From Verrucomicrobiales bacterium (GTDB taxonomy: Bacteria; Verrucomicrobiota; Verrucomicrobiia; Verrucomicrobiales; V1-33): 64,000 bases of DNA. Position 1 is the stretch's first letter; every line of letters starts with the position of its first letter. This document shows positions 30,463 through 51,400 of this stretch, one piece after another. The position numbers and the translations under genes were made by a program. Under the pieces are notes generated by a model, which was not told the DNA's origin, did no database searches, and was given only the letters and a program-made list of their open reading frames with translations. The stretch is taken from positions 14,255 to 78,254 of the forward strand of contig JANOAV010000122.1 of NCBI GenBank assembly GCA_031411295.1, written 5' to 3'.

Positions 30463-30595
30463 CCGGCCCTTCCCGCACAAGGCGCGGTCACGACCGCCTG
30501 CTCCTAACATTTCGCCAAGAGCCCCGCCTCCCCCGAGCCCTGCGCACGTTTTTTACCAAACATAAACCCCGTCACATCGACACCTAAAATCCAAC

Positions 30596-33406
30596 ATGGC
30601 ATCTAAAACCAAACCCGCTAAGCCAGCCAAAGCCGCCGGCAAATCCACCAAATTCGTTTACACTTGGGGTGACGGCAAAGCTGACGGCAACGGCAGCATG
30701 AAAGCCCTCCTCGGTGGCAAAGGCGCCAACCTCGCTGAAATGAGCCGCATCGGCCTCCCAGTGCCTCCTGGATTCACCGCCACCACCGAAGTATGCACTT
30801 ACTTCTACGCCAATAAGAAGACCTATCCAGCTGTGCTCCAAAGCCAAATGGAAGCTGGTGTGAAGAACATGGAAAAGATCATGGGCTGCAAATTTGGCGA
30901 TACCAAAGGCATGCCCCTCCTCGTGGCCGTGCGCTCCGGTGCCCGTGATTCCATGCCTGGCATGATGGACACCATTTTGAATCTCGGCCTCAATGACGAG
31001 ACCGTGAAGTCCCTGGCCGCCGCCACCAAGAACGAGCGTTTCGCTTGGGATTGCTACCGCCGCTTCATCCAAATGTATGGCGATGTCGTCCTCGGCGTGC
31101 AAAAGACCGAAGGTGAAGACCACGAGCCATTTGAAGTCGTGATCGAAGAATTCAAACACGCCAAGTATAGCGACAAGCACATCGTCGATTCCGATCTGAC
31201 CGCTGAAGACCAAGCTGAATTGGTGAAGCGTTTCAAGGCCCTCGTGAAAAAGCGCACCGGTCACGTGTTCCCCACGGATCCTTGGGAGCAACTCCGTGGC
31301 GCTGCTGGCGCGGTGTTCGGCAGCTGGATGAACGATCGCGCGATCGTTTATCGTCGTAAATACAATATCCCAACCGAGTGGGGCACCGCCGTGAACGTGC
31401 AGGCCATGGTCTATGGCAACACGGGCGATGATTCCGGTTCCGGCGTGGCCTTCACGCGGAATCCTGCCAACGGTGTGAACGAGTTCTACGGTGAATTCCT
31501 GATCAATGCCCAAGGCGAAGACGTCGTCGCTGGCGTGCGCACCCCAGAGCCTGTTTCCAAGCTCAAGGCCGCCATGCCAAAGCCATTTGCCGAACTGATG
31601 AAAGTTCGCGCCACGTTGGAGAAACATTTCAAAGACGTGCAAGACGTCGAGTTCACCGTGCAACAAGGCAAACTCTTCATGTTGCAAACCCGTAACGGCA
31701 AACGCACCGCCGCTGCTGCTCTGAAGTTTGCCTCTGACATGGTCAAAGAAAAACTCATCGACTGGGAAACCGCCGTGCTGCGCAATCCAGCTGATCAGCT
31801 CGAGCAACTTCTGGCTCCTGACTTCGATCTCAACGAGATCAAGAAAGCCAAGATCCTCGCCACGGGCCTCCCAGCAGGTCCTGGTGCTGCTTCCGGCATC
31901 ATCTACCTCAACGCTGACCGCGCTGCCGCCGCCGCCGAGAAAGGCCAAAACGTCCTCCTCGTCCGCAACGAAACTTCCCCTGAAGACCTCCGCGGCATGA
32001 TCGCAGCGGTCGGCATTCTCACTGCCAAGGGCGGTGTGTCCAGCCACGCAGCGCTCGTCGCTCGTCAGATGGGTAAGGTTTGTATCTGTGGCGCCAGTGC
32101 CGTGGATATCGACTACGACAAGAAGACCGTGAAGATCGCAGGCCAAACCTTCCATGAAGGCAAAGACTTCCTCAGCATCGACGGCACCGCCGGCACGATC
32201 TATGGTGGTCAAGTCAAGACCGGCCCATCCTCCATCGTGATGGGTCTGCTCCATGGCGACAAAGCCGCGCAGAAGACGGAGAAATTTGCCGCCTTCAAGC
32301 AACTCATGGACTGGTGTTCCAAGGCCACCCGTATGGCCGTTCGCACCAACGCCGACAACCCAGAGCAAACCGAACAAGCCATCGCATTCGGAGCCCAAGG
32401 CATCGGCCTGACCCGCACGGAGCACATGTTCTTCGAAGGTGATCGCATTGATGCCGTTCGGGAAATGATTCTCGCTGAAAGCGTGGAAGCCCGCAAAGCC
32501 GCCCTGGCCAAGCTCCTCCCCTACCAGCGCGAAGATTTCACTGGCATCTTCAAAGCCCTCAAAGGCTTGCCAGCCACCATCCGTCTGCTCGACCCACCAC
32601 TCCACGAATTCGTGCCGCATGAAGCCAAAGCGCAGGCCGATCTCGCCAAGAAAATGGGTGTCACCGCCGCCAAGGTTGCCCACCGCGTGGAACAACTCCA
32701 CGAGTTCAACCCCATGCTCGGACACCGTGGATGCCGCTTAGGTATCGCCTACCCAGAGATCACCGAAATGCAGGCTCGCGCCATCTTCGAAGCCGCCGCT
32801 GATGTGGCCAAGAAGAAGATCAAGGTGAAGCCAGAAGTCATGATCCCGCTCGTCGGCTTCAAGAAAGAGTTCGACCTCCAGGCCGAAATCGTTCACCGCG
32901 TCGCCAAGGAAGTCATGAAGGAGAAGAAGGTCACCTTCGATTACCAAGTCGGAACCATGATTGAAGTCCCGCGTGGCGCCCTGACCGCTGATGAAATCGC
33001 GCAAAACGCCGAGTTCTTCAGCTTCGGCACCAACGACCTGACCCAGACCGCCCTCGGCATCAGCCGGGACGACATGGGCAGCTTCCTCATGCCTTACGTC
33101 GAGAACGAAGTGTTCAAGAAGAACCCCTTCGCCACCCTCGACACCGTGGGCGTCGGCCAACTCATGCAAACCGCCGTCACCAAAGGCCGCAGCGTCCGCC
33201 CAGACATCAAGCTCGGCATCTGCGGAGAACACGGTGGTGACCCAGACAGCGTTAAGTTCTGTCACAAGCTGGGCCTCGCCTACGTGAGCTGCTCCCCATA
33301 CCGCGTGCCAGTAGCACGTCTGGCCGCAGCCCAAGCCGCCATCGAAGAGAAGCGCTCCGCTCCAGCAGCCAAGGCTGCTCCTGCGAAGAAGGCTAAGAAG
33401 AAGTAA
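30596..33406 (+). CDS. ppdK: pyruvate, phosphate dikinase
   Basis: [12 protein letters not shown], phosphohistidine region [15 protein letters not shown], and a PEP-utilising C-domain ([21 protein letters not shown]). It carries extra Lys/Ala/Pro-rich N- and C-terminal tails. Confidence 0.95.
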
Positions 33407-33424
33407 TTCATCAAAACCACACCT

Positions 33425-33456
33425 AAAGCCGCCGGGGAAACCCGGCGGCTTTCTAT
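33425..33456 (+). terminator. rho-independent terminator of ppdK
   Basis: AAAGCCGCCGGG-GAAA-CCCGGCGGCTTT forms a perfect 12-bp stem, followed by CTATT. Confidence 0.75.
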
Positions 33457-33457
33457 T

Positions 33458-34126
33458 ATGATTCCAATCGCAAATTGCTCCCTTACTAGAGGGATTGCGG
33501 ATAACACTGAAGTGCTGATCCCTGCGGAGTTGAGTTGGATTTCCGATCCGAGAGATTGGCTTTTCGCTGACGAATGGGAAGAAGCAGCAAAAGGGACTGC
33601 TGACCCGAAAAAAATCGACTCTGTCGAATTCGCAAAAATTGCTGAAGGCAGATGGAATTATTTGCGGCAACGCAAGGAATGCGCCTTGAGCTGGGAGGAT
33701 GGTAAATCTCGATCACGTGAACACCCAAAAAGTGAGTATGGATTTGGAATCGCATTAAGAATGAGTGACGGACGCTGGAAACGAACGGTGGGATTTATTC
33801 ATGTGCGGCGGCTTTGGAGTGGAAATTTTTGCCTTGAGTTTCTGGGAACTTTTGCACCACCAGGGATCAAACACATAGGTTTTACTCTGCTCACTTCGCT
33901 TGGCGGGCTAGCCGAAAAAAGCAAGGTAGGCGAGGTTTGGGGGGGAATGCACAGAAGACTCGAAGGGCTTTTACCAGAACTTCAAAACCAAACTGATGAT
34001 CGCGAGCTTGGAAGATTGCTTAGTTCGCAAGGAATTCCCCCTGAAGGGATGGCAACTTCCTGGGGCGATACTCGACAGGTTTGTGTTCGGTCAACAGGAA
34101 CTCAAGGCGATGAGTTCAGCTTTTGA
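33458..34126 (+). CDS. island ORF A, possible GNAT-fold protein; probably frameshifted at a G7 run (33939-33945), with the true end at 34181
   Basis: 222-codon ORF. After deleting one G the reading becomes ...FCLEFLGTFAPPGIKHIGFTLLTSLGGLAEKSKVGEVWGECTEDSKGFYQNF..., which resembles the GNAT core. That frame ends in an ATGA overlap with the next ORF. Confidence 0.5.
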   Translation: MIPIANCSLTRGIADNTEVLIPAELSWISDPRDWLFADEWEEAAKGTADPKKIDSVEFAKIAEGRWNYLRQRKECALSWEDGKSRSREHPKSEYGFGIALRMSDGRWKRTVGFIHVRRLWSGNFCLEFLGTFAPPGIKHIGFTLLTSLGGLAEKSKVGEVWGGMHRRLEGLLPELQNQTDDRELGRLLSSQGIPPEGMATSWGDTRQVCVRSTGTQGDEFSF

Positions 34127-34177: not shown

Positions 34178-34378
34178 ATGACAAAGAATCAGAAAATTAA
34201 TCTAGCCAAAAGTCTAATGGCTATCGAACTCACTGCCACTCCCGTGACAGGATCGCGCACATCAATGCGGGCACAGTCTAGAGTAACTCCACAAAGGAAA
34301 TCTGTGACTTTTACCGCAAGCCAGAAGCAGAAGCTTCGGACATTCTACAATAGTCCCTCTGTCGCCAAGCCGACTTAA
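34178..34378 (+). CDS. island ORF B, small hypothetical protein (66 aa)
   Basis: Its ATG overlaps the TGA of the alternative frame of ORF A (ATGA coupling). No motif recognised. Confidence 0.3.
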   Translation: MTKNQKINLAKSLMAIELTATPVTGSRTSMRAQSRVTPQRKSVTFTASQKQKLRTFYNSPSVAKPT

Positions 34379-34551
34379 GCTCCAGACGCCCTAGCACCCA
34401 CATGGCCAGCGTTTTAGCGCGTGTCTCCGCCCTGCTCGATGAACTACCCTTCCCGGATGACAAAAAGCAAGTCCTCAAACTCGCCCGTAGCATTATGCTG
34501 CCTCTAAATCAATAGCAAGACCTGCTGGTTGCCAAGTAAAGTGGAGGTGTT

Positions 34552-37500
34552 ATGTCTCCAGCGATGCACCCTTTACACGAAATCCGATTGCCAGCAGCGC
34601 CCTCCATATCTGGGGAAACGTTATTGGAGTGGGATCGTCTTTGGTGTCCGTTAGGCGGTAAAATTTTGATGGAGGGGTTCGGGTTTCATGATTCCAACCG
34701 AGGATTTCTTCAGGAACCTTCAGCTTACGCCAATAAAGAGTGCCGAACATTGCAGCAATGGATTAGCTGTCCTGCTGGCGCTTGGGTTCTTTGCGGTGCT
34801 CCGGGCACAGGCAAAACTGGTGCGATCCATCGCTGGTTGGAACTTGTAAAGAAAGCTGAGCCTGATACTGCCATCATTGCTTGGACGACTGGCATGTTTG
34901 GCGCGGCAGCAAATTTTGAATGCCTCTCCAGACAGCCAACCTTCATCGAAGCGCTCACTTCGCAACGAAACTTGATTCTGGTTATCGACGGGTTCGATCA
35001 ATTTCGCACCGAGGGAGGGTTGCCATTTGAATCCCTGACAGCGTTCTTAACATCTATTCCTGACCGCTCGCGCCTGCGCCTTGTCATCGGTTGTAGATCT
35101 CGTGACTGGAACTCCACTCATGGGCAAGCATTAATAACCCTTTGGGGGAAGCCCGAAAATCCAAGAGTGCTAGAAATTTGCCAATTGCGGCGTTCCGAGG
35201 TGGTTTTGGCGACGGAGGCATTTGGCGGAATTTCATCGCAGAGTTTTCTCAATGAAGTCTTCGCCAAACGGCTTGAGGCTGCCGCTCAGTGGCCATTGCC
35301 CCTTGGCTCACTGATGAATCAGTTCTCCAATGAGGGAGGATTAACGGCGTCTGTGCGCGAAATGTTTTCGCGGACGATTGATCAGTTGCTAGCTGACGCT
35401 CGGGCGCGACTACCCGAAACAAACGCACTTCATCGAAGGCAACTCCGGCAATGCGCGAGCAGACTTGCCGCTTTGACTAATTTTGGTGGCTACTCCCGCA
35501 TCGGGCGCAGCGAGACGTCCCTCAATTCATTAAAGCCCAGCGAATTCTGCGGTTCTTATGCGCTCGCTTCTGAGGTCACCACCGAAACGGGAGAATTTGT
35601 CCTTTCTGAGCCGATGTTGCACCAATTACTTGGGACTGCACTCTTCACAACTGTCGAACCGCCCTTAGTGCAGGAACCAGATCCGCCATTCGGCTTCACG
35701 CATCAGAACTACGCCGAATTTCTAGCAGCCGAGTATGTGGCCCACTTGAACATTGATCAATTGCGCAGTCTGCTAGCAATTCGAGGACTTGGAGGAGAAA
35801 CAGTGCCGGGCCCACTCGTGGAGACGACCAGTTGGTTGGCAGTTATGCGACCTGATTGGTTTGCATATCTCGTTTCCTCCATGCCCGAAATTCTGGTGCG
35901 GGCGGATGGAGCACAGTATTCAAATGAGCAGAAACTTCGCTTAGTGCAGGCGCTGTTAGAAAGGGCCCACAGTTGGAACGCCTCGGTATTTGAAGATTTA
36001 AAGTTACTGACTCCTGCGTTCAATTTTAGCGGATTGGCCGAGATACTAGAACCCGTCATCGTCGATGCCTGCGCCACAAATTTCCCTCGTAGGCTGGCTA
36101 TGGAAATAGCTGAACGATGCAAGTTAAGCGCATTGGAAGAAGCTTTATGGCAAGTGCTGGAGCGAGACAATGAAGACGAGAATCTTCGCTATTGGGCCAC
36201 TCGTGCACTGCTGAGAATTTTAATGGAAGCTAGCCTTGGAGAAAAAAGCATTCAGCGGTTGAATCGAGCAATGCGAGGAGAGATGGGCCCAGATGCAAAT
36301 GACGAACTCAAAGGCGCAGCCCTTAGGTGTCTTGTCCCGCGAGTGCTGAAACCAAGGGAGGTCGCTCAGTTTCTTACAATTTGTCAAAACGGATCTTATT
36401 ACGGAAATTACTCTGCATTCCTAAATCGGGTGCTGCCAGCAATTCTTACAGAAGATGACTTGGAGGCGTTCTTGGGGCTTGGGGCAATTACCCCATCCCT
36501 GTTTCATGTCCAGTTTACGTCCAACATTTTGGCAACTGCTGTGCTAAAACTTTTCAGCAAAGTCACCTCGCCAACCCAGGGGATGAAACAGGGGTTCATA
36601 GGATGGGTTCAGCGCTGTGTGAAAAATCATACGATGCTCCCTTTGTCCGAGAGACATTCATTCGATTCAGAACTAGCAGAATCGTTGTCGGATGACATCC
36701 CGATAACAAAACGATTCGAGTGGTTGACGATGTTCGTGAAAGAAAAAATGCCGTCCAAGGATTCAGACTGGGCGGTCATCCATGCCCTGGGATTCCCTCA
36801 TCCACCGTTGGATCTAACCCTAAATGCATTAAACGAAGCAGAGCCTGCGTTGCGTCCATTTTGGGCTGAGATCGTTCGGTTCTCGCTGGGTCCGGACCAG
36901 AGGATTGCCCATCTTGATGCGCTGCTTGCGGCTTATGAGCGCCATGAAGAACTACGAACCGCATTGCTGCCATGTAAGAAGGGCAAGAACATCCACCAAA
37001 CATACAACGAAATAGCACACAAGGCAGCCAAGGAGAACGAACGCCATCTACGACAACGAAAGAAGTCGGAGAAGGAACTACTTTCACGGCGGCAATTGCT
37101 AGACGTGTATATTGGCCAATGGAAGACCGACGGAACAGAACTTTCGTGGATAAATTTGTGGCAGATATGTGGTTTAGACGAAGCCGGGGTTTCGTTCGAC
37201 TGGAGTGGCGAAATGTTGACGGACTGGAAAGGGTGGAAATCTTTAACCGTAGATGAGCAATCCCATGTGAGAGGCTGCGCCAAAGCGTTCCTGATGCTTC
37301 GGGACGACCCTCATCGCAACGCCTCAGAATGGAAGGCGACAAAATGGACTGATGCAGCTAGGTATGCCGTTGGGTTACTTTCCGATGAACTTGGAGTGGA
37401 TCATCAGTTGGCGCAGACTGTTGGGCAGAAGTGGGTGATCGCATGGTCCCACCATCATTGTGACAACACCGGGGCGAACCGAAAAATCGCCAGCGTTTTT

Positions 37501-38928
37501 TATAAGCTACACCCAGAGACGGTTATTAGACTCATGCGCTCCAATTTCCAAAAGGAGAACGAGGCGAACAACCATTGTCAGAGTGTTCGTCTGCTAGCGG
37601 ATTGCTGGGGTAACGCGTTAAGCGCTGAGCTCACAGACTGGCTGAGTGCAGACAACATTCAACCAACCACATTTCGCACAGGAGTTCAGTTTCTCTCATC
37701 AAAAGCCCCGGACAGCGCCATAAGCCTTTTATCTGGGCGCTTAGACCGGATGGCTTCCGAGGGTAAGGAAACCGAAGACCCGCTGCGTGAGGTAATAATC
37801 CTCTGCTCACTTCTTTTTTCGAATGGAGAGCTCTTTGAACAAGCGATTACGCTCTTGAGTGACGCCACCAATGCTAGACGCATTCTTTGCTTAGCTCATG
37901 GAGACGTGGGAGATGGCGCGCATGGCTTGCCTTCAACGCTGACGGCATTAACGAATGAGCAATTGGGTCGTCTCACGGTGTTAGTTGCCCATGCCTTTCC
38001 TGAAGATGAGCGTGCCCACAATGCCGCAGGAGATGAAATCGATGAGCCGGGGGAACAGGAGATTGACGATGAGGAGGCAGCAGGCCTTGCGTTGGAGAAG
38101 AAGTCCGGTCAGACCGGGAGAACCACAACATCCAGCATGCTCATGCATCGCATCTCCACTAGCATCATTGCGCACTTTGCCTCTGTCGCTACCTCTAAAG
38201 AAATCGATGCATTGCGTCCACAGATGCCAGCAGGCAGACGGACGGAGTTGGCATTCAGGCGCAGCAGTGCTCAGCGTCAAGCAGCGCAAATCGCTTGGGA
38301 ACCGCTTACACCTGTGCAGTTATTGAAGCTGGTTCAGATGCCGCACGCGTGCTTCGTGCGGACCAATGATGATTTGCTAGAATTCATTTTGCTGCGCCTT
38401 CAAGCATTTGCAGACCAACCTTGGGACATCTCTGTGCAACCTCTGTGGAATGAAGATGACGGCAAGCCGACAACAGCAAAAAATGAAGAAGCTCTATCGA
38501 ATACACTCAAGCGGTGGCTGGACAAAGATTGGCAACTCGTGGTGAACCGTGAAGTCCAACCTATCGAGACCATGCCGAATCGATTAGACCTGAAAATCGA
38601 CATTCCCGGCCAGCCTGCATTATGCGTCATTATTGAGGTAAAAAAGGCTGGAAACGCCGAGGTCTTAACCTCCCTGCAAACGCAGTTGATTGACCGATAT
38701 CTTATCGCAGGGCGTCAAACTCATGGCGTCTATCTGGTGGCCTACTTTGGTGACAAGGGCAGCCCATTCCGGGGAAAATCAATTGAAGAGGTAAGGCAGG
38801 AACTCCAGCATATTCGTGATAGCGCCACCCTGCCACCTGACGTTCGGGTCAGCACCCTCTTGATGGATTTTAGACACCTTAAGGTTGTTCAGAGAGCACT
38901 TAGGAAGCCAAAGCGAAAGCAGCGGTAG
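34552..38928 (+). CDS. NACHT-type STAND NTPase with a helical-repeat region and a C-terminal PD-(D/E)xK-like nuclease motif (1458 aa)
   Basis: GGAGGT Shine-Dalgarno 5 nt upstream. Walker A GAPGTGKT (aa 82-89), Walker B LILVIDGFDQ (141-150), RLVIGCRSRDW, NACHT-end motif FTHQNYAEFLAAEY (about 381-395). About 800 aa of HEAT/ARM-like helices, an acidic linker (DEIDEPGEQEIDDEE), then RLDLKID...VIIEVKK (aa 1344-1365). Confidence 0.85.
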   Translation: MSPAMHPLHEIRLPAAPSISGETLLEWDRLWCPLGGKILMEGFGFHDSNRGFLQEPSAYANKECRTLQQWISCPAGAWVLCGAPGTGKTGAIHRWLELVKKAEPDTAIIAWTTGMFGAAANFECLSRQPTFIEALTSQRNLILVIDGFDQFRTEGGLPFESLTAFLTSIPDRSRLRLVIGCRSRDWNSTHGQALITLWGKPENPRVLEICQLRRSEVVLATEAFGGISSQSFLNEVFAKRLEAAAQWPLPLGSLMNQFSNEGGLTASVREMFSRTIDQLLADARARLPETNALHRRQLRQCASRLAALTNFGGYSRIGRSETSLNSLKPSEFCGSYALASEVTTETGEFVLSEPMLHQLLGTALFTTVEPPLVQEPDPPFGFTHQNYAEFLAAEYVAHLNIDQLRSLLAIRGLGGETVPGPLVETTSWLAVMRPDWFAYLVSSMPEILVRADGAQYSNEQKLRLVQALLERAHSWNASVFEDLKLLTPAFNFSGLAEILEPVIVDACATNFPRRLAMEIAERCKLSALEEALWQVLERDNEDENLRYWATRALLRILMEASLGEKSIQRLNRAMRGEMGPDANDELKGAALRCLVPRVLKPREVAQFLTICQNGSYYGNYSAFLNRVLPAILTEDDLEAFLGLGAITPSLFHVQFTSNILATAVLKLFSKVTSPTQGMKQGFIGWVQRCVKNHTMLPLSERHSFDSELAESLSDDIPITKRFEWLTMFVKEKMPSKDSDWAVIHALGFPHPPLDLTLNALNEAEPALRPFWAEIVRFSLGPDQRIAHLDALLAAYERHEELRTALLPCKKGKNIHQTYNEIAHKAAKENERHLRQRKKSEKELLSRRQLLDVYIGQWKTDGTELSWINLWQICGLDEAGVSFDWSGEMLTDWKGWKSLTVDEQSHVRGCAKAFLMLRDDPHRNASEWKATKWTDAARYAVGLLSDELGVDHQLAQTVGQKWVIAWSHHHCDNTGANRKIASVFYKLHPETVIRLMRSNFQKENEANNHCQSVRLLADCWGNALSAELTDWLSADNIQPTTFRTGVQFLSSKAPDSAISLLSGRLDRMASEGKETEDPLREVIILCSLLFSNGELFEQAITLLSDATNARRILCLAHGDVGDGAHGLPSTLTALTNEQLGRLTVLVAHAFPEDERAHNAAGDEIDEPGEQEIDDEEAAGLALEKKSGQTGRTTTSSMLMHRISTSIIAHFASVATSKEIDALRPQMPAGRRTELAFRRSSAQRQAAQIAWEPLTPVQLLKLVQMPHACFVRTNDDLLEFILLRLQAFADQPWDISVQPLWNEDDGKPTTAKNEEALSNTLKRWLDKDWQLVVNREVQPIETMPNRLDLKIDIPGQPALCVIIEVKKAGNAEVLTSLQTQLIDRYLIAGRQTHGVYLVAYFGDKGSPFRGKSIEEVRQELQHIRDSATLPPDVRVSTLLMDFRHLKVVQRALRKPKRKQR

Positions 38929-39427: not shown

Positions 39428-42400
39428 TTACTTGAAGATTGGGGCAAAAGTCGTATCCACGGAACCATCTGGATTGAGGCGGACGATGCTGGTGCGGGTT
39501 TGCCCGCCGAAGGTGCTGAAAGTGCCACCACCCAAGACTTGCCCGTTGCCGACTGGCAGGATGGCCTTCACCTCGGTGCCAGAGTTGTTTCCCGTGCCGG
39601 TTTGGTAGGAGGGATCGACGGCACCCGTGGTCGTGCTGAGGCGGGCGATACCCCGATGCGCGGTGGCTGAAGCACCAAAATCACCCCCAATATAGAAGAG
39701 GTTGCTGACATCGTCTGGACGCGATAGATCCGGCCCAGCGAGATCCCGGAAGGCCAGCGCCCCAGTGGAAACGTTGGTGCTGACACTACCAGTTAGGCTG
39801 ATTTTGTGAATTTGAGTGGTCAGGGTTGGTCCGACGGCGGGATTGAACACTCCGTAGAATTGGGTGCCTGCTGCGTTGATGGACAACGCATCCGGGGTTC
39901 CTTGCGTGAAGGTGCTGACTACCGTTGCTGGAGCCAAGGTTTGGACGTTGAAGGAATACAATTTACTGCCGGCTGTAAAGTAAGCCACGTAGGCATTGCC
40001 ACAAGTGAGATCACCCACGTTGACCAAACTCACGTTGCCATTGAGATCGGCAATTTGCACCTGATTCACGATGGCGGTGCTGCTGACATCGATGCGCACG
40101 AGATCATCGGTGCCAGTGGCAATATAGTAAAGCCCGCCGCGCATGAAGGCCAAATTGCCAGGCTTGCTGGTCGGGCTGTAAGTGAAGCTGCCCTGTAGGG
40201 AACCCAGGGCAAGGTGGCTGCCACTGTCCAGGCTATAGCGACCCAGTTTGAAGTTGCTGGCCGTTTCCTCGACGTAATAAAGGTAGCCGTTGGCCTGATC
40301 CCAAGCGATGGCGGACAGTCCGGCAAAGGCGGCTGCTGCGGTGGTCAGGGTGCTGCTCGTGCCAGTTTCGGGATTCACTTGGTAAATGTTCCGGTCCGTT
40401 CCGCCGGCCACGGCGTAGTAGGCGCCAGCATAGGATGCCGCATTCAAATGAAGGTCGGAGGTATCCAGCAACGCGAGGCCCGGGGTCGTCGCGGTGCTGG
40501 TGCCGCTGATGGCTCCGGTCGTGGGGTTCAAGGTCCGAATAATGGTTCGCGCAGCATCACGCGCCACGTAGAGCGGACGACCACTGCCAGCATCAGGTCC
40601 GAAGACGATGGACTCGCAATAATCAGCAGTGCCTGCGGTGGAGGCAATCTGGGTGTAGGTGCTCATGGTCGTGAGATTGAATTTCGCCATGATGCTATTG
40701 CCTCCAGCGATCGCGCTGAAATACATCATGCCCGAGTCGTCCACCGCCAGATCCCCCACGGAAGCAAAGGCCACGGTGTTGGCGGTGAGATCCCGCACCT
40801 TGGTTTGTTCAGTGCCGATCGTCGGACTAGTGGTGATGCGGATCAGATCGTCCGTGCCCGGCTCAATGAAGTAGAGATAGCCGCCCCACCAGGATAAGTT
40901 GGTGGGTTTGACGGTCGAGTTATAATTGTTGCCCGTGGTTAGGTTGTAAACGGCAGTATGGACATTGGTGGCAATCTGCCAGCTCCCTAACGAGTAGCCC
41001 GTGGCGGTGTCCTGGAGATAGAACACGGTGTTCTGCACCGGATCATAGGCCAGCGAGGAGACGTTGAAGGCGGCGGCGTTGTCCACCACTTTGACGGTGG
41101 CTCCCGTAGTTAGGTTCAAGGTGTAAATGTCTTTGTTTCCACCCGTAACAGCATAGACCAGCCCTGCTGGCGGAGTGGGCACGGGGTTGAAATTGCGGGC
41201 GGGGAATTTGAAACCCGGGAGGTCGGTAAAGATGGGCGTGCCCCAGGGTGGAGCGGAGTTATAGCTCCATAGGGTGGTATCCGCACCAGAGGCGACGACC
41301 CGTTGCAGGGTTTTGCTGGTTCCGTTAACGGAGACGAAATCATTGTTCGTCGGACTGATGGCCAGATCCTTGCCCGTCACGGAGGCTTCCGTGCTGTGCA
41401 AGCTGGTGACGACGGCTGTGGTTGGATTAATCACCAACATTTCCCCATCCTTGGAGTCGAAGGCGTAGAGGGTGCCATTCGGATGGAACTCGAGGGCGTC
41501 AACATTGGTCCCCACATTCGTGCCGTTGGTGATATCTCCGACCGCCGACCATGCCGTTAGGTTGTTGGCTCCGTCCACAGACAGTCCGGTGATTTTGAAG
41601 AGTTTGTCCACCGCTGTATCGGTCCCGCGCTGATAAACCGCATAGAGTGAACCGTCCGCGCCCACGGCCAATCCACTGACCGCTTCAACATTAGTGGACG
41701 TGGTGATGGCGGCTCCGTTCATGCTGCTAAGCGCTTGATCCAAATCACCCACGAAGGTTGCGGTCACACTACCGGCGGTCACCGTGTTCAAATCAACCCG
41801 GAAGAGGGGGCGGCCATAGAGGACACCGTTGACGTTGGTGTCTTTGTTGCGCACAAAGTAAGCGTAGTTATCGGTTGTGACCGCAAAGGATTCGATGTCG
41901 CTATCTGCTGCCAGTGCAGTGGCGGCACCGCCACTGCCGGGGTAACGAATATCACCGTAGTTGGTCAGGGTAGGCGCGCCGTCGTAGCCGTTGATCTTGA
42001 GCAACTGCGCGTTGGTATTTTCTCCGATGGCCCAGGCGGGTGGAGCGGGAACAGAGGCGTTGGAGGCGGACGCGAAGTCCGTGAAGGTCAGCTGGGGCTG
42101 CGCATTGGCAGTCACGGAAGCGACTCCGGAACTAAGATTCAACGAATCGATCACGAAGGCGTTGCCACCGGTGCCGTAAAGCTTTCCCGTCAGGAAGCCT
42201 AACGATGGATAGGCGCTGGTCGTGGTGCCGATGGTGGCGAAACCAGTGGCATCGCGCAGGTTGTATTTGTAGAAGGTGTTGACGCCGGCGTTGGTGCTGA
42301 CCCAGTAGAGCACGCCTGAATCATCCAGCGCCAAGTCACCGACAGTATTGAAGGTGGTGCCCAGGCTGATGGTGGATTGACCAGTGATGATGGTAGCCCC

Positions 42401-45400
42401 GGCATCGAGTTGACTCTTCACGATGTTGCTCGTGCCAGGTTGGATGTAGTAGAGGGCACTGTTGTAATAAACCAAGTTCCCAGGATACGCGGTGGCGGTA
42501 GTTGCGATGGTTTTGATATTTCCCAACGTGGCTGAGTGCGTGCTGGTGCCGACGGTATATTTACCAACGTTCCAGGTCGCATTCGCTCCATCTTCCAGAT
42601 AGAAAATATTTCCACTCACACCGTCATAGGCAATAGCGCCGAGATTGTAGGGTGCCGAACTGTTCAGCAGGGCACTAATGCCAGTGGTAGGCTCGAGTCG
42701 ATAGAGATTCTTATTTCCCCCAGTGATGGCAAAGAAATTAGCCGAAGGAGCTGGCAGCGCTGGCTGATTGGGCGTGGAGGTGGCCAAGTCAAGAATTTGG
42801 TTGGCTGGATTGACATTGCCGACCAAAGTGCGAGCCCCTGTAGTAACGTTCAAGGTGTAAAGCTTCTGACTCACTACGGGATCGAATGGAATCCCGTTGA
42901 GTTTACTGCTGTCATAAGTTAGCGCGTAGTAGCGTGGATTCATGGCACTGCTATCGATGATGGTATAACCACCGAACGTGCGCATATCGAAGCGAGCCAA
43001 CACGTTGGCATCTTCATAGGAAATGTAGGCTTGGCCGAGGTCGTCAATCGTGAAGGCCCCAACCGTCGAACCAACGGTGGCGTTGCCGGCCACGTCCGCC
43101 ACGCGAACTTGATCCGCGATGACATAGGGACTGGTGAAAGTGATCTTGAAGAGATCGTCGGTGCCTGTGGCAATGTAATAAAGGGCTCCATTGAAGTGAG
43201 TTAGGTTATGGGCCCGCGTGCCCGTTGGTCGATGGGTGCCGATGAGTTTTAGATCCGTCTGGAAGAGCGCATCGCGCACGGCGCTGTGGGTATCGGTGCG
43301 GAGATCGTAAGCGTAGAGGCGCTGTGGATTGTCCGTGGTTACGGTGTAGTAAACCAGCGCGTTGGTCTGGTCGAAGGCGACCGCCTCCACATCACCCTTG
43401 GCTTGCCAAGTTAGGAAATAGGCGCGGGCAGTCGAGAGATCCGTCCGCAGAATGGCCGGGGTATTGGTGATGCTGGTAAAGGCATAGCCACTGCCCGGCA
43501 AGTAAGGGCCGGAGGTTGAGGATATGTCGGTAAAGGCAATTTTCGGCAACACTGGGGCGACAAAGGTCGGAGCACCAGTGGTGATGTCGAGGGAGAACGT
43601 TTTGTAAGGATCATCACCGCGCACCCCATAGAGGGAGCCCGAGGAATTGAACACAAGGCTGGACCAAGGGATGTTGGGATTGTTCGAGATCAGAGTATAA
43701 CCACCCATGATCGTGAGATCGTAGCGGGCCAGCTTGGCCGTCGAGGCGAAATAGAGCATGCCATTGCTGTCGATCGTGGCTGCAGTGACGGCTCCCTGCG
43801 AGGCGTCGTTATTGAGATCGGCCACTTTGTGAAGGCTGTCGATCCCGATGGGGGTGAGGTCAATTTTGATCAAATCATCGGTATTGGGCGCGATGGTGTA
43901 GAGACCACCGTTGGCGATAAAGAGATTTTCCGGCTGCGCAGTGATCGGCGTGTGATTGGTGCCGCCGGGTGCGGTGAGATTGAAATTGTAAATCGTGTGA
44001 ACATTGCCCGTGAGATCATAGCGGCCGACGCGCCAGTTGCTGGCGGCGGCTTCCACATAGTAAAGTTTGTTGGTTGCGCTATCGAAGCCCAGAGACTGAA
44101 CATTGAACGGAGCGCTCGTGATGGCCATGTTAGAGCCCGTGGCGGGATCAATCCGGTAAATGGTGGAGGTGCCATCGGCTGCGAAATAGCCAGTAACCGC
44201 AGGCGGTGGCGTGACCGCTAACCCAACAAAGCTAAGGGCGGATGGGGTGCTGAGGCCCCAGAGGTTGAAGTAATTGAAGTAAGCAGTGTCATTCGCGTTG
44301 CCAGTGACGACTTTGGTGATCGTGGAGTTATTCAACGCAGTGACGAGGTCGGTGTCGGAGAGATGGACGGCCAGCGGACCCGCGGAAGCTTCGGTGCTGT
44401 GCATGGCCACGGTGAGGGATCCGGTGGTGGCATTGACTTTATAAACGCCGAGGTCATCCGTATCACTGACATAAGCCTGCCCCGTGCTGTCGATGGCCAG
44501 ACCGCGGGCATTCCCGGCGTTCGTGGCACCATTTTGCAAGGTTCCGACCAAGCCCACCGCGAGGTTGCCTGCGCTCGAAGGAGTCAGACTGATGATTCGG
44601 CATAAGGCATCGGCGGTGGCGCCATTGCCAATCCGCACCACCAAGCGCAGGCTCCCGTCCGCGCCTGGGGCCAGGCCGGAGACCACTTCATTGGAGGTGA
44701 GCGGAGTCACTCCGATGGCCGTGCGCAGGCCGGGACCGAGGTCGCCCACCAAGGATGCCACCACGGGACCAGAACTTGGCAGGCTGTTCAGGTTGAGGGT
44801 AAACAACGGCCGTTCGTAAGTCACCCCGGCAATGACCGTGGCCGCACTATTTACGAAGTAGAGTCGGTTGGAAGCATCCACCGTCATGGCGCCAAGAACT
44901 GACGCAGCATTGGTGAAGAGCGTGGTGGCAGCACCATCCCGATAAGCCAGGGCTCCGAAGTCGGTGCTAGCAACGTTGCCGCCATTATTTTTATAGTTAC
45001 GGAAACGCAGCAGATGTGGATCTGGGGCTGCGGAGTATCCGGCAATGGCCCAGAGATCGTCGCTGGCAGCGGGAGGAGTGTTAGCCGAGGGGCCAGCGAA
45101 GTCGGTGAAGGCCAGCGCAGGGGAGGAGTTCACAGAGGAGATGAGGGAGGCGTTGCCTTGGCTCAACTGGTCAACTTGGAGGGAGCCAGCGGCATAAAGA
45201 TTACTTTGATAAAGGCCTAAAGCCGGCTCGGCTCGGGGCAGGGTGCCCACGACGCCAAAGCCAGTGCTCCCAACGATGTCGTAACGATAAAGCGATGGGG
45301 TTCCTACCGCAGGGGTGTTCGTGAAGAGCAACATCCCAGCATCCGTGGCGGAAATATCGCCAGGGTCCGCAAAGGTGACTGCTCCACCAGTTAGGCTGGC

Positions 45401-48400
45401 GACCTGGGAAATCCCGGTGATGGAAACTCCGCTGGCATCCAACTGCACCTTGAGAAGATCATCGCGCCCCGGCACCACAAAGTAGAGGGCTCCATTATAG
45501 TAAGCGAGATTCTTGGGAACCATGCTCGGGCTGAAGCCATTGGTGACGGATTTGATGTCGCCCACGCTGGAATGCAAGCCAGTGGTCACGTCGAAGCGCC
45601 CCAGGTTCCACGCACCGTTACTGAGGAGCGTGTCTTGGAGATAGTAGAGGTAATTGCGGGTAGCATCGTAAGCTAATGCGCCAAGGTTGTAAGGCGCTGA
45701 ACCGTTTAAGAGGACATTGACTCCGGTGGTGGGATCGAGGCGATAAATGTTCGGGCTACCGTTAGTGGTGGCGAAGAAGGTAGTCGTCATCGGGGCAGCC
45801 GCACTTTGCCCACTGGCGAAATCAATGAAGGAAATGTTCGGCTGAGCTGTTGCCACTAGGGTGCTGGCGGCCGTGGTGGGATTGAGGGATTCAATGATGG
45901 CTCCGTTAGCCCCCGTGCCATACAACGTGCCACCGAGGAAGCCCAAGCCAGGATAATTTCTGGGAGCCACGCCCATGGCGGTCAAACCGGAACCAGTCTG
46001 CAGGTTGTAGCGATAGAGGGTAGGGATACTTGCGGAGGTGTTGACAAAATACAGCAGACCACTGTCGTTGAGCGCCAAGTCACCGATGGAAACGAAATTC
46101 GTGCCCAAGCTGATGGCGGTTTGTTCGATGACGGTATCCAAGGCGCTATTAAGCTGCACTTTCACCAAATTACTCGTGCCGGGATGGATGTAGTAAAGTG
46201 CCTGATTATAGTAAACCAAGTTTCCAGGGAAGTTGGAGGGACGCGTGCTCCCAACTTGCTTGAGGTCACCCAACGTGGCGGTGTGGATGTCCGCAGTGAG
46301 GTTATAGCGACCTACGCGCCAGGTGGCACTGGCGCTTTCTTCCAAGTAGAAAAGAGAATTGCTCACCGCATCGTAAGCCAGCGCACCCAGATTGTAAGGG
46401 GCTGCGCGATTAATAATTTTATGGACTCCCGTAACGGGATTCAATTGATAAATATTGGTGCCACCGTTGATGGCGTAGAACAAGCTGGTGGCGGTGGGAA
46501 GTGCGGGCGCATTTTCCTCTCCCGCATAGTCCACGAAGCCCTTGGGCGGATTTGTGGCGACGTTTGTGGTCTCCGTTCCGGCCGCATCCAGTTGGTAAAT
46601 CTTGGTGTCCACCCCCTGCCGGTCAGCATAGATGGTGTTCCAGAGGTCGCGCTGCAAGCCGGGGTAATAAGCTTCCAACCCAGGGGAAGCAGTCGTTGTG
46701 GTGCGTTTTGCGGTGTAACCGGACAGCGTGGTAAGATTGAAGGTCGCCAACTCATTTTCGGATGCGATCCAGAGGAGTCCGGTGGAGGTCGTGGTGATGT
46801 CCCCGATGTATCCAAGGTTGCTGGCTCCATTCGTCAAATCCGCCACCTGGTTTTGATTAGCGATGGCATTACCCAGCAGATCAATGCGGACCAAGTCATC
46901 GGTGTTACTATGAATGTAGTAAAGGTTTCCGTCGAAGAAACTGAGATTGCTGGGGCGCGCGGTTGGGTTGTAGTTCCAAGTGCCCGCCACGCTGGGTTCA
47001 TCGAGATTCCCCAGAATCGTATGGGTATTGGTCGCCAGATCATACTTGGCGAGACGCCAGTTCGGGGTGGCGTTTTCGGTGTAGTAGATGACTTGTGACG
47101 CCGCATCGTAGGCCAGAGCATTGAGGTTGAAAGCAGCGGCAGTGGTCAGCGCAGTGACCGTTCCGGTCGTGGGGCTGACGCGGAAAATGTTGGGACCACC
47201 ATCCGTCGCGAATTGAGAGCCGCTGGTGATCGGAGCATCACTATAGGGGGACGTAAAGTCACTGATCGCCAAGCCCACCCCGCCATTGTAGCTGCCATCC
47301 CACAAGTAGGTGGTGGCTCCGTTGAAGGGATTGACGCGATAGCCCTTGGTATTGATGTGTTGCAGTGCACCAATCATTTGACCTGATGCACCAAATGTCA
47401 GGGCCGCATAATCCGCCCCTTCATCGCTCCCTTTGGAGGTCTTCAAAATTTGCGGTCCGGTCAGCAATTGGAGATTGATGCGGGCCAGGTAATCAGTATC
47501 CCGGGTGGAGAGGTAAGCGGAGGAATCCGGTGCGATGGCCAACGTATCCCAATCCTGAGCGGCAACTCCAATATCCCAGACCTTACTGGCCGCAGTGATG
47601 CTGCTGGCACCTACGGTCACTTTCACCAAATCATCGGTGTTCTTGGCTACGTAGTAGAGGAATCCATTCTGATAAGCCAAATTGTGCGCAGCGGCAGTTG
47701 GCGTGTAGGCCAGTCCACCCGCTTTCAGGCTACCGAGCAGCGTGTTGCTGCCGGTGCTCAGGTTGAAGACAGATAACTGAATATCACCAGTGCTGGCAAG
47801 ATCATCTCCAGCGGTGTAGAGCAACCCATTCACGTGGTCCATGGCGATGGCGCTTGGGGTTAGCGGGACTTGCGAAGTGACGAGGGCTTCTTTGCCCGTG
47901 GCCAGATCCAGACGATAAATGGAGGTGCCGGCGGCACTGATGAAATAGGTCAATCCCGTGGTGTCGATGGCAACATTTGGCTGCGGAGCGGCAAAGTCAA
48001 AGAAGCTCACGGAGGGGGTAAAGCTGGCGACGAAGGTTCCGGCACCCGTCGTTTTGCTCACTTCATAAAGTTTCCCCGGTTCCGCATTACTCACCCCGAG
48101 CAGTTTTCCGGCTGCGGTGGTCACCAACCCGGTCCAGTAGGTCGCAGGAGCGGCAGTCTTGATGCTGAAGGAAGACTGGGTTTGATAGTTCCATGTAGCG
48201 AAGGCGTTGCTGGCGGAGATGAACATCGTGCCAGACGTGTCCGTGGCGATATCTCCCACATTCGTCAATGCCACATTGTTGTTCAGATCGGCCACCTTCG
48301 ACTGCGTTTTGACGGTGGGAGTGCCGCTGTCGGCAAATTCGATGGCGATAAGGTCGTCCGTGCCCTCCGCAATGTAATACAAACGACCATTCAGGAACAT

Positions 48401-51400
48401 CAGGTTGCGGGGCTGGCTGGAGGCTTGGTAAGCATAGACCGAATCATTCAGCGTAGCGCGGATCGCATGGGTATTGGTGGCGGGCACGTATTCGCCCAAA
48501 CGCCAGTTGCTGGAGGCCTGCTCGATGTAGTAAATGCGCGTCTCATCGGTATTTACCGCCACGCTCTCGAGCGGGAAGGGCGCGTTACTAACCCAGTCAA
48601 TGTTGTTGCCGTTGCCGCCGTCGAATTTGTAGATGCTGGTGTTGTTACCGCCGACGGCATATAGGTTCGGAACCACGCCGATGAGGGTGATGGCGTCTGA
48701 CAAATCGACGATGGGGTTGGCTTCGGTGCTATTGGACACGAAAGTGAGTGCCCCCGTGGTCTTGTTGACGCTGGAGAATTTCTTCCCGAGATCCCCCACC
48801 ACACTAGCGGGGCGGGTGGCATACATGGCCTGATCGGATGACCGAATTGCCAAACCTTGGTAAGTGCGGGGAGCCGCAGTGCTTACGGTGGAGAAGGCAC
48901 TGCCGTCCGGCATCATGAATTTGCCATAGAAGTCCGACGTCGTTTCCCCGAAGTAAGCCAACCCGAGGTTATTGACCGTCAGGCCACCAATCTGCCAAGT
49001 GCTCACATTGTTGCTCAGGTCCTTGATTTTAACCTGAGAGGAAATGGTATTACCGCTGACAGTAATCTTCACGAGATCATCCGTGCCATCAGCGATGTAG
49101 TAAAGGCCATCTTGGAAGTAAACCAGGTTCTGCGCACGAGTGCCAGGGGTGTAGGCATAGGTGGCCGCTGCCCGCAGGTCTCCCATGAGGAAGTGCTGGC
49201 CGCTGGAGACCACATAGCGGGCCAGCTTGAATTCTCCCGCCGCGGCTCCACCCGTATAATAAATGATCTGGGTGGAGGCATCGTAAGCCACGGCATAGGG
49301 CTGGAATTTGGCGATATCGGTGAGGGACGTCACTTCCCCGGTATCAGGGTTAGCCCGGAAGAGGCTGAGTTTAGTATCTGCCACTGCGATCAGATCACCT
49401 GGTGCGGTGGGATCAGGGAGCGCTGGAGGGGCCGTGCCTGCGATATCATGGAAGACGCGGTTAGAGGTGTAAGTGGCCGTGATGGCGCCAGCTCCCGTGA
49501 GTGGATCCACCACTTTACTCTTGGTGTTCTGAGCCGTGTCTACCCCGTAGAGTAGGCTGTTCGCGGCATACACCAAGGCCTGCCAATTGCTGGGCGGGCT
49601 GTTGGAAATGACGGCGTAATTGCTCTTGGTCAGCAAATTGTATTTCGCAAACATCGTGGAGGACGCGAAATACAACGTGCCGTCTGGGGCTACCGTGGCG
49701 GCATTAACCGCGCCCTGACTCACGCCACCGTTAAGCTTGGCGAACGGTCCCACCATGGCGATGGCGTTGCCATCAATTTCCACGCGTCGAAGATTGTCCG
49801 TGTTGTTATCGATGAAGAGCAACTGTCCGCCAAAGAAAATCAGGTGATTGGGTTGGGACGTGGCTGGAGTCCAGCCAGCGGCCACATTTCCCAAATGATT
49901 TGTCAGGGTGGTATGCACCCCGGTCGTTGGATTATAACGACCCACGCGCCAGTTGCTGGTAGCCTTTTCCACATAGTAAACCAAGTTATTCACCTTATCA
50001 TAGGCGACGGCGCCAGGCACGAACGGACATGAGATCGGTTCCCGGGTGTAACGACCGGTATCTGGATCGAGCTTGTAGATCCGCTGCGAGCCATTGGAGA
50101 CCGCATAGTAAAGGCCTGCTGGGGATGGAGGAGGAACGGTGGACCCTGCCGCAAAATCGGTAAAGGTGAGATTGGGTTGGCTAGTTGATACCTGGACGGG
50201 AGTTCCGGGCGCGATTTCGGTATCGATGGAATCGTTGGCAGCCCCATTGCCGCCAGCGCCGTAGAGCACATCATTGAGCACGCCCAAGGCCGGGTAGGCG
50301 CGGCTCGCGGTTCCCAGATTCGTGAGGAAGCTGTCGTTCACCAATTCAAACTGCCAGAGCGTATGGGTGGAGCCGTTCGTATTCACCCAGTAGAGCACCC
50401 CGGAATTATCTAAAGCCAAGTCCCCAATGGTGTTCATCGTTGTGCCGAGCGCGCGATTTACTTGGGTCGAGACCGCCGTCGCCCCAGCATTAAGGCCGAC
50501 TTGGACCAGATTTTGCGAGGATGCATGGATGTAATAAAGGGAGTTATTATAAAAGACCAAATTGCCCGGATAGCTACTCGGCCGGTTGGCCCCAATGAGC
50601 TTCAGATCACCCAGGGAGGCTGTATGCGTATTCGTGGCCACAAGATACTTTCCCACCCGCCAAGTGCTGCTGCCACCATCTTCCAGATAGTAAACTGCAC
50701 CTGCCGCAGCATCGTAAGCAATGGCTCCGAGGTTGAAGGGCGCGCTATTGTTGATCATTTGGTGCAGGCCAGTCACGGGGTCCAAGCGGTAAATGTTCTT
50801 GTTTCCGCCAGTCACAGCAAAGAAGTTCGCACTGGGGCTGGGCAGGACGATGGGCGCTACCACCCCGGAAGTGTCATTGAAGACGGTGGAAGGGAAGGAA
50901 GGGACGCTGGTAGCTTCGGCCCCAGCAGCATTCAGTTTGTAGATGGTGGCATCACCCGATCGGTTGACGTAGAGCGTATCGTTGGGCAGGCGGGTAATGG
51001 CGGCATAGAAGGGAGTGGCTGGCGTGCTGGCGAGCGCGCGCACTACAGTATAGCCGCTGAGGGTGGCGAGGTTGAACGTGGCCAGCACGCTTTCCCCCGC
51101 AATCCACAGCCGTCCATCGGCACTCGTGCTGAGGTCGCCCATGATGCCAAAGTTGGCCGTGCCATTGGTGATATCGGCAATTTTCTCCTGGTTCGAAACG
51201 ACGCCACCGCTGAGATCAATCCGCACCAAATCATCCGTGCCATTGGCCACATAATAGAGATTCCCTGCGAAGTAGGTCATCCCAGTGAGGCGGCCGGAGG
51301 GAGTGTAATTCCAGGTGCCGGATGAAGGGGTGGCCAGACTGCCTAGCAACGTATGCGAGTCGGTGGCGAGACTGTATTTTCCCAGGCGAAAGTTGGTCGA

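Follow-up and report, generated by a model that had tools for sequence, protein, structure and literature searches.

The window analyzed here, a 64,000-nucleotide stretch of Verrucomicrobiales DNA (contig JANOAV010000122.1, positions 14,255 to 78,254), encodes a NACHT-type NTPase of 1458 amino acids with an effector-like domain at its far C-terminus. Sequence comparison places this protein in the EruA/HyoA superfamily as a deeply divergent, distant member that belongs to neither of the two equivalog families. We favor, with moderate confidence, the reading that it is a stand-alone anti-phage NACHT-type STAND ATPase with a C-terminal nuclease output. Homology to EruA and HyoA at both ends of the protein, location in a low-GC island, and a patchy distribution make the anti-phage role, proposed in an earlier sequence-only reading of the same DNA, the best reading of the gene.

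The NACHT-type gene and its superfamily

The open reading frame (ORF) spans 34552–38928 on the forward strand, comprises 1458 codons, and starts with an ATG preceded by a Shine-Dalgarno sequence (GGAGG) 7 nt upstream. A search of 5.8 billion proteins recovered five full-length homologs (P0002–P0006) with 32–51% identity and E-values from 1e-205 down to 0, together with four further, more distant ones. Because full-length homologs exist at this level of identity, the ORF is a genuine gene and not a chance product. The search was word-based and returned 10 homologs, which outline a small Verrucomicrobial clade; a scan of genome contigs with the full-length alignment gave 101 pattern matches, none of which was confirmed. 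The database gene call of the same protein begins at M40, yet the motif WxRLWCPLGG (residues 27–36), located upstream of M40, is kept in the homologs, making M1 the better start. The ORF and all motifs quoted in the sequence-only reading were found at the residues it gave, and the ~75 residues it counted ahead of the P-loop measure about 80.

The short N-terminal region (residues 1–74) matches no NCBIfam or Pfam family. Within the close clade, W27, R29, W31, C32, P33, G35, and G36 of its motif are invariant; among 50 superfamily members, the consensus reads YxWKRFWCPR, with R29 at least 90% conserved. The NTPase module that follows carries a Walker A motif, GAPGTGKT (residues 82–89, including K88), which fits GxxGxGK[ST]. 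NACHT-type Walker B motifs consist of a hydrophobic strand followed by D-G-x-D-[EQ], with two acidic residues. The corresponding segment here is LILVIDGFDQ (residues 141–150, with D146 and D149), for which the superfamily consensus is LFLDSLDE. Further downstream, RLVIGCRSRDW (residues 176–186) contains the sensor arginine R182, and FTHQNYAEFLAAEY (residues 382–395) contains the winged-helix histidine H384. By position, H384 would be the equivalent of H443 in NLRC4; the role of the winged-helix histidine has been described by Kibby et al. (10.1101/2022.07.19.500537).

D146, D149, and H384 are invariant in 50 diverse superfamily sequences, and conservation of G82, G85, G87, K88, and R182 reaches 90% or more. 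This conservation of the Walker A and B motifs, R182, and H384 bears out the assignment of the module as a STAND/NACHT-type NTPase. All Pfam matches of the segment fall below threshold (nSTAND5, E 1.5e-4; NPHP3_N, E 2.7e-3; NACHT, E 0.011), and the score against NACHT (PF05729) is 16.0 bits, under the gathering score of 26.7 bits. The distant homolog P0009 reaches 31.8 bits against the same model, above the gathering score; one frameshifted relative has a weak NACHT match, and NCBI labels one fragment a NACHT domain protein.

Two equivalog families in the June 2026 release of NCBIfam, HyoA (NF058534, 1430 positions) and EruA (NF058535, 1318 positions), are both named 'NACHT domain-containing antiphage protein'. 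The whole window protein matches HyoA with 78.9 bits (E 1.8e-22). Its NTPase segment matches EruA (E 3.8e-20, 71.7 bits) and HyoA (E 5.9e-8), and its C-terminal domain matches positions 1110–1278 of the 1318 in EruA (E 9.8e-11, 40.5 bits) and 1222–1382 of the 1430 in HyoA (E 3.1e-6). Intermediate relatives (P0005, P0012, P0021, P0023, P0044, and P0110) align end to end with EruA, and all seven sampled superfamily members match both families. In a 50-sequence alignment, the window protein shares only ~20–23% identity with the bulk of the superfamily. It lies outside both equivalogs, scoring 78.9 bits against a HyoA cut-off of 1200 and matching EruA, whose cut-off is 1000, by segments only.

The superfamily is large. 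An HMMER scan of 1.84 billion cluster representatives (50%-identity clusters) with a profile of the C-terminal domain, Pfam DUF8371, recovered at least 5,038 representatives at E ≤ 1e-3 and 1,594 at E ≤ 1e-30. Full-length DUF8371 proteins are overwhelmingly 1,380–1,420 amino acids long, with the domain at the extreme C-terminus and, nearly always, the same NTPase at the N-terminal end. Kibby et al. (10.1101/2022.07.19.500537; Cell 2023) reported that C-terminal effectors occur in bacterial NACHT proteins, listed restriction-endonuclease-fold DNases among the effectors, and proposed that the solenoid brings such an effector back to its usual spatial position. The sequence-only reading had taken this layout for that of an undescribed family. 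The matches to EruA and HyoA at both ends, the DUF8371 annotation, the 5,038 clusters, and the work of Kibby et al. do not bear that view out: a NACHT module with a C-terminal effector-like domain is already catalogued and very widespread. The match to named families largely removes the novelty then claimed for the protein, whose importance, had the layout been undescribed, would have lain in a new architecture for immune receptors.

Between the NTPase and the C-terminal domain lies a long helical region that is presumed to act as the sensor. Positions 458–546 of the superfamily profile match artificial HEAT-type alphaRep proteins among PDB sequences (E 4e-7), and Pfam HEAT_2 appears below threshold in the same area of the window protein, P0008, and P0023, so the helical region is HEAT-like in its first part at least. 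Of the ~800 residues of HEAT/ARM-like helices seen in the sequence-only reading, HEAT-like repeats are detectable only at about residues 480–575, with the remaining ~600 residues putatively helical. Against PDB sequences, the full-length profile recovered only alphaRep/HEAT proteins and weak AAA+ P-loop matches, with no NLR and no nuclease, and the single window protein recovered only the P-loop of Cdc6 (E 0.9). Residues 641–1150 are the most variable structured region, with 39–43% identity in the close clade. The linker that follows (residues 1151–1225) is 11–32% identical to the homologs and gapped in P0005 and P0006. As claimed earlier, an acidic stretch, DEIDEPGEQEIDDEE, sits in this poorly conserved, indel-rich linker.

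The C-terminal domain

Pre-computed annotations assign the C-terminal alpha/beta domain, roughly 185 residues long, to Pfam PF28130 (DUF8371). Its core (residues 1299–1400) carries E1312, N1332, E1334, D1346, E1362-x-K1364, Q1378, and Y1383, with RLDLKIDIPGQPALCVIIEVKK (residues 1344–1365) spanning D1346 and E1362-x-K1364. In an alignment of 65 diverse sequences with a mean column identity of 32%, S1316, E1334, D1346, E1362, K1364, Q1378, L1379, Y1383, and G1392 are invariant, and W1299, E1312, N1332, and R1333 are kept in 90% or more of the sequences. The motif first proposed, D1346/D1350...E1362-V-K1364, is thereby retained in part: D1346, E1362, and K1364 stand as invariant residues, and D1350, which is not conserved, was rejected as a catalytic residue in favor of D1346.

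We modeled residues 1262–1445 with AlphaFold2 from the 65-sequence alignment (mean predicted local distance difference test score, pLDDT, 92.1; predicted template modeling score, pTM, 0.88). Secondary structure assignment of the model by DSSP places a helix at residues 1312–1329, starting at E1312, followed by a short strand at about residue 1339. Next comes a hairpin whose first strand (residues 1347–1351) is immediately preceded by D1346 and whose second strand (residues 1357–1365) holds E1362-x-K1364. Q1378 and Y1383 lie on the helix after it (residues 1374–1385), and a final strand (residues 1391–1398) completes a core whose predicted, as opposed to experimentally determined, order is alpha-beta-beta-beta-alpha-beta. 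PD-(D/E)xK enzymes share this core and carry their catalytic residues at these positions. The invariant or nearly invariant E...D...ExK...Q..Y on such a core gives the domain a PD-(D/E)xK-like look.

Restriction-endonuclease folds recur, with weak scores, among the top ranks of Foldseek searches of the PDB with the model. The best are Kpn2I (E 0.033), EndoMS/NucS (E 0.10), and EcoO109I (E 0.12), joined by Mus81, XPF, EcoT38I, BglII, BamHI, OkrAI, and BstYI; we infer that their share of the top ranks is far above their share of the PDB. The distribution of sequence conservation supports an output role for the domain. Within the close clade, conservation peaks in the C-terminal core (68–70% identity, against 48–63% for the P-loop region), and a conserved C-terminus beside a variable solenoid is the pattern that would be expected of an effector and its sensor. 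A 1637-residue Rhizobium Ti-plasmid protein, WP_257623507.1, matches positions 5–1197 of the superfamily profile (E 1.5e-192). It has the N-terminal motif, lacks DUF8371, and ends in a ~400-residue GT4-like glycosyltransferase, which supports the view that the C-terminal slot is a swappable output position.

Several search results argue against a nuclease. In Foldseek searches of the PDB with two models, the lowest E-value was 0.074 with the first model and 0.033 with the second, no match lying at or below 1e-3. Template modeling (TM) scores were near 0.3, reaching 0.39 at most with the first model and 0.31 or less with the second. A search of BFVD with the better model returned nothing significant, the best match (E 7e-3) being a phage protein named for a helix-turn-helix (HTH). 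The C-terminal profile matched no PDB sequence at E up to 10, and a Pfam scan of the 65 members revealed no recurrent family, with weak matches to PDDEXK_3 in one member and to DUF7149 in three. The Pfam label of the domain is still DUF (domain of unknown function). Because no structure or profile search was significant, we call the nuclease fold, predicted from the model, probable and not proven. The PD-(D/E)xK-like C-terminus of the sequence-only reading is thus upheld in its invariant residues and predicted topology, with the fold itself unconfirmed at a best Foldseek E of 0.033.

These negative searches and the DUF label, along with the conservation of the N-terminal motif across the superfamily, would also fit a defense STAND protein in which DUF8371 binds a ligand or nucleic acid as a sensor, serves as a tether, or has a regulatory function. 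The output would then lie elsewhere, for example in an N-terminal WxRxWCP motif that recruits a host factor, or in ATP depletion. We regard this alternative as unlikely. It leaves the invariant E, D, and ExK residues on the very elements where PD-(D/E)xK enzymes carry their catalytic residues, and it assigns a sensor role to the best-conserved stretch of the protein, although sensors tend to diversify. Moreover, the domain is replaced in the Rhizobium relative by an enzyme domain, as an output slot would be, and no known enzymatic effector would fit into the 74 residues of the N-terminal region.

The domain is followed by a basic tail, which is also found in P0002–P0005 and is absent from P0006 and the more distant members. 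Stand-alone DUF8371 proteins were considered and rejected, as the short ORFs on long contigs (P0194 and P0205) are pieces of frameshifted full-length genes. One 416-residue DUF8371 fragment, P0065, carries pre-computed annotations of sigma-70 regions 1.1 and 1.2 (PF03979 and PF00140); an unusual fusion or a fused gene call may account for them.

The low-GC island and its neighborhood

The gene resides in an island that extends from a hairpin at 33428–33454 to about 39420 and bears a signature of horizontal transfer. Its GC content is 0.509, against 0.572 in the rest of the window, a difference of about 6 standard deviations when compared with 6-kb windows elsewhere (standard deviation 0.010, minimum 0.548). 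GC content at third codon positions (GC3) is 0.52 in the NACHT gene and 0.41 in a 222-residue ORF upstream of it, compared with 0.70 in the pyruvate phosphate dikinase gene that precedes the island. The lower-GC insertion noted in the sequence-only reading is therefore real.

The dikinase is 81–90% identical to dikinases from Verrucomicrobiales, Prosthecobacter, and Akkermansiaceae metagenome-assembled genomes. Two metagenomic contigs (L002 and L087) carry a NACHT homolog directly downstream of a 91%-identical dikinase gene, and these homologs are 51% (L002) and 44% (L087, over its N-terminal 451 residues) identical to the window protein. In GTDB representative genomes, 80 related Verrucomicrobial dikinase loci, of which 48 have at least 5 kb of downstream sequence, all lack a family member. 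Given its absence from these loci, its low GC content, and a divergence exceeding that of the flanks, the gene appears to be accessory. The site downstream of the dikinase gene is a lineage-specific hotspot, where the receptor diverges much faster than its flanks.

Outside this hotspot, the distant homolog P0009 adjoins type IV secretion and relaxase genes, and relatives borne on conjugative plasmids adjoin TIR, VapC/Phd, AbiEi, SIR2, Abi, integrase, and Tn3 genes. A survey of homolog context, suggested earlier as a check on the defense role, gave a divided answer, with some homologs beside defense or plasmid genes and others, on contigs L001 and L003, amid metabolic genes. A conserved partner gene was sought and rejected: the neighbors differ among L001–L004, and only the 222-residue ORF and a 66-residue ORF recur, in L087/L088 only. 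As no partner gene is conserved, we treat the locus as a single-gene system.

The anti-phage reading has points to answer. No PADLOC model (v2.0.0, E up to 0.1) matches the window protein, its neighbors, or four relatives, so a search for a known system came back empty. At 78.9 bits against an equivalog cut-off of 1200, transfer of function from HyoA spans a long distance. No primary publication was found for EruA or HyoA, whose names are absent from DefensePredictor, a domain-centric NAR 2026 paper, and a phage-trigger preprint, and no relevant literature was found for DUF8371; the antiphage status of both families is consequently taken from their NCBIfam names. Lastly, the L001 and L003 homologs have no obvious defense neighbors.

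Some of these points would suit a non-immune STAND signaling or regulatory ATPase with a cellular role and a fixed locus downstream of the dikinase gene, as would the same post-dikinase position in three genomes (the window, L002, and L087) and the interspersion of defense and non-defense STAND clades (Lee et al., PMC13581612). We consider a cellular role improbable. A fixed cellular gene is hard to square with its absence from all 80 related dikinase loci, with strongly atypical GC and GC3, and with shared-locus copies that are 44–51% identical next to dikinases at 91% and amid differing accessory genes. Other members reside on conjugative plasmids by toxin-antitoxin, TIR, SIR2, and Abi genes, and the nearest named relatives are annotated as antiphage. 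Least probable of all is that the gene is mobile-element cargo directed against plasmids or conjugative elements, or an addiction module, and not phage-specific: the low-GC island, the type IV secretion and relaxase genes beside P0009, and the integrases and Tn3 transposase beside plasmid-borne members would agree with it, but neither an integrase or transposase nor flanking repeats occur in the window island, no antitoxin-like partner stays with this single ORF from locus to locus, and the STAND proteins characterized so far sense phage proteins.

The features of the gene and of the island are collected in Table 1.

Table 1 Features of the NACHT-type gene and the surrounding island (window coordinates).
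Feature	Position	Strand	Basis
Complete NACHT gene, single-gene system	34552–38928	+	ORF list and translation, Shine-Dalgarno sequence, full-length homologs P0002–P0006
N-terminal region, residues 1–74, with WxRLWCPLGG at residues 27–36; no assigned function	34552–34773	+	Conservation
NACHT-type NTPase module, residues 75–400	34774–35751	+	Residue conservation and EruA/HyoA matches
Helical region, residues 401–1150, presumed sensor	35752–38001	+	alphaRep/HEAT profile matches, variability
Acidic low-complexity stretch DEIDEPGEQEIDDEE, residues 1161–1175, in variable linker (residues 1151–1225)	38032–38076	+	
C-terminal alpha/beta domain, residues 1262–1445, DUF8371, putative nuclease effector	38335–38886	+	Alignment, AlphaFold2
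Basic tail ending RKPKRKQR (residues 1451–1458)	38887–38925	+	
GC-rich hairpin with T-tract, likely terminator, left island edge	33428–33454	+	gccgccgggg-aaa-cccggcggc-tttct, after the dikinase stop
222-residue orphan ORF, possible accessory gene	33458–34126	+	GC3 0.41, one 67% homolog in L087
66-residue ORF between the 222-residue ORF and the NACHT gene	34178–34378	+	54% counterpart in L087/L088
Four-helix-bundle gene, 159 residues	38937–39416	+	TIGR02436 E 1.1e-7, Pfam 23S_rRNA_IVP E 3.2e-7

At the left edge of the island, the hairpin was not listed by a scan for consensus promoters and terminators, whose matches stayed at shuffle level. Neither island flank contains an integrase or transposase, and att-like direct and inverted repeats are only short and at chance level. 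The L087 homolog of the 222-residue ORF is placed as in the window, with the dikinase gene on one side and the NACHT homolog on the other; the ORF is absent from L001–L004 and matches no family, including PHROGs. The 66-residue ORF also has no family match, and counterparts of both occur in the same order in L087/L088. A third small ORF of 37 residues (34403–34516, forward strand) lies between the dikinase and NACHT genes as well. These small ORFs could be accessory or regulatory for the island.

The four-helix-bundle gene begins 8 nt after the NACHT stop codon. We excluded it from the system because its GC3 (0.66) is host-like and it accompanies none of the homologs. The tight coupling of the NACHT gene to its neighbors, as described in the sequence-only reading, holds for this downstream side, with 8 nt to the next ATG, and fails upstream, where gaps of 173 nt and 425 nt separate the gene from the 66- and 222-residue ORFs, respectively.

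Among the related loci, the NACHT homolog in L002 is flanked by a CapP-like M78 peptidase (PADLOC capP, 7e-19), a 356-residue protein, and an R2K ATP-grasp protein. These flanking genes (L002 3732–5375 and 9913–10794) could form a separate defense module at the same hotspot; by eye, the 356-residue protein (MSVDLAGSTAF...AIGDELVF) resembles a class III nucleotidyl cyclase. Upstream of P0005 (L001 6632–7911, reverse strand) are ORFs of 246 and 180 residues without Pfam matches. The former has a nucleotidyltransferase-like GG...DLD motif and the latter is HTH-like, so that, judged by eye, they may be an AbiE-type pair. The glycosyltransferase-bearing member (L093 5671–10584; Rhizobium sp. K1/93, pTiK1_93) has as neighbors SIR2 and AAA ATPase genes, a DfrB gene for trimethoprim resistance, and genes for an integrase and a Tn3 transposase.

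In the window itself, an ORF of 4876 residues (39428–54058, reverse strand) converges on the island. Its N-terminus, MKSRSPGYTLIEVTMVVAIIAILS, has the look of a prepilin-type (type IV pilin-like) signal, and Thr, Ala, Gly, and Ser are abundant in the protein, which shows no internal repeats in a self-BLAST and no match among PDB sequences. A giant pilin-like protein of the surface or adhesin type is the probable reading. Two antisense ORFs of 713 and 310 residues over the dikinase gene (30584–32725 and 32738–33670, reverse strand) are most likely spurious, as the coding strand has high GC3.

Proposed mechanism and comparison with known systems

A mechanism for the favored anti-phage reading, modeled on Avs and bNACHT proteins in its ligand sensing, oligomerization, nuclease activity, and abortive infection, would run as follows. 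At rest, the protein would be a nucleotide-bound, autoinhibited monomer, with H384 holding the closed state. A phage-derived ligand would bind the HEAT-like solenoid (residues 401–1150) and permit nucleotide exchange at the Walker A and B motifs (K88 and D146/D149), accompanied by oligomerization of the NTPase modules. Oligomerization would cluster the C-terminal DUF8371 domains, which could then act as PD-(D/E)xK-type metal-dependent nucleases through E1312, D1346, E1362, and K1364. Cutting of DNA would either halt phage replication or kill the infected cell, the latter an abortive outcome suggested by the same analogy.

More broadly, and tentatively, DUF8371 may represent an unrecognized, structurally divergent branch of PD-(D/E)xK nucleases that serves as an exchangeable C-terminal output in a STAND superfamily of at least 5,000 50%-identity clusters. 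The solenoid would fold back and the output would be controlled by the N-terminal WxRxWCP motif; the Verrucomicrobial clade would occupy a fixed immune locus after the dikinase gene and diversify several-fold faster than its flanks. For the unannotated DUF8371, the analysis gives a residue-level hypothesis of a nuclease active site (E1312, D1346, E1362-x-K1364, and Q1378..Y1383) that extends to thousands of proteins. The glycosyltransferase swap in the Rhizobium Ti-plasmid relative supports a model in which the solenoid carries the effector at its distal end, and the Verrucomicrobial hotspot is documented by receptors that are 44–51% identical beside a neighboring dikinase at 91%.

The C-terminal domain resembles PD-(D/E)xK enzymes in its predicted core, where helix 1 opens with an acidic residue, an Asp precedes strand 2, and strand 3 contains an ExK; 15 residues separate D1346 from E1362. 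It differs from them in its extra invariant residues (S1316, N1332-R-E1334, and Q1378-x4-Y1383), in an N-terminal helical extension (residues 1262–1298), and in showing no significant structure or profile match to solved or Pfam members.

The antiviral STAND families Avs1-21 (Gao lab; Lee et al., Nature 2026, PMC13581612) are single-gene STAND NTPases whose large helical-repeat sensors bind conserved phage proteins; on binding, they oligomerize and set off their effectors, nucleases among them. The window protein is likewise a single-gene STAND NTPase with a large helical-repeat sensor-like region. Avs proteins have N-terminal effectors and TPR-like sensors, whereas the window protein has HEAT-like repeats and carries its effector-like domain at the C-terminus. 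With only 74 residues ahead of the NTPase module and no match to a PADLOC Avs model, the protein falls outside the Avs group.

Compared by description, bNACHT proteins such as bNACHT25, which has an Mrr-like restriction-endonuclease effector, share with the window protein a NACHT NTPase, the winged-helix histidine, a repeat sensor, and an effector of (here, putative) restriction-endonuclease fold. In bNACHT25 and most tested bNACHT proteins the effector is N-terminal, unlike in the window protein, in which the Pfam NACHT match is also below threshold.

The closest likeness is to EruA and HyoA. The window protein scores far under both cut-offs and sits in its own small Verrucomicrobial clade, but it is similar to them in length and has the same domain order, and the NTPase, the helical middle, and the C-terminal domain all align. 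It reproduces the architecture of these families throughout: a short N-terminus, an NTPase, ~750 residues of helices, and a C-terminal DUF8371 domain, in a protein of ~1,300–1,450 residues.

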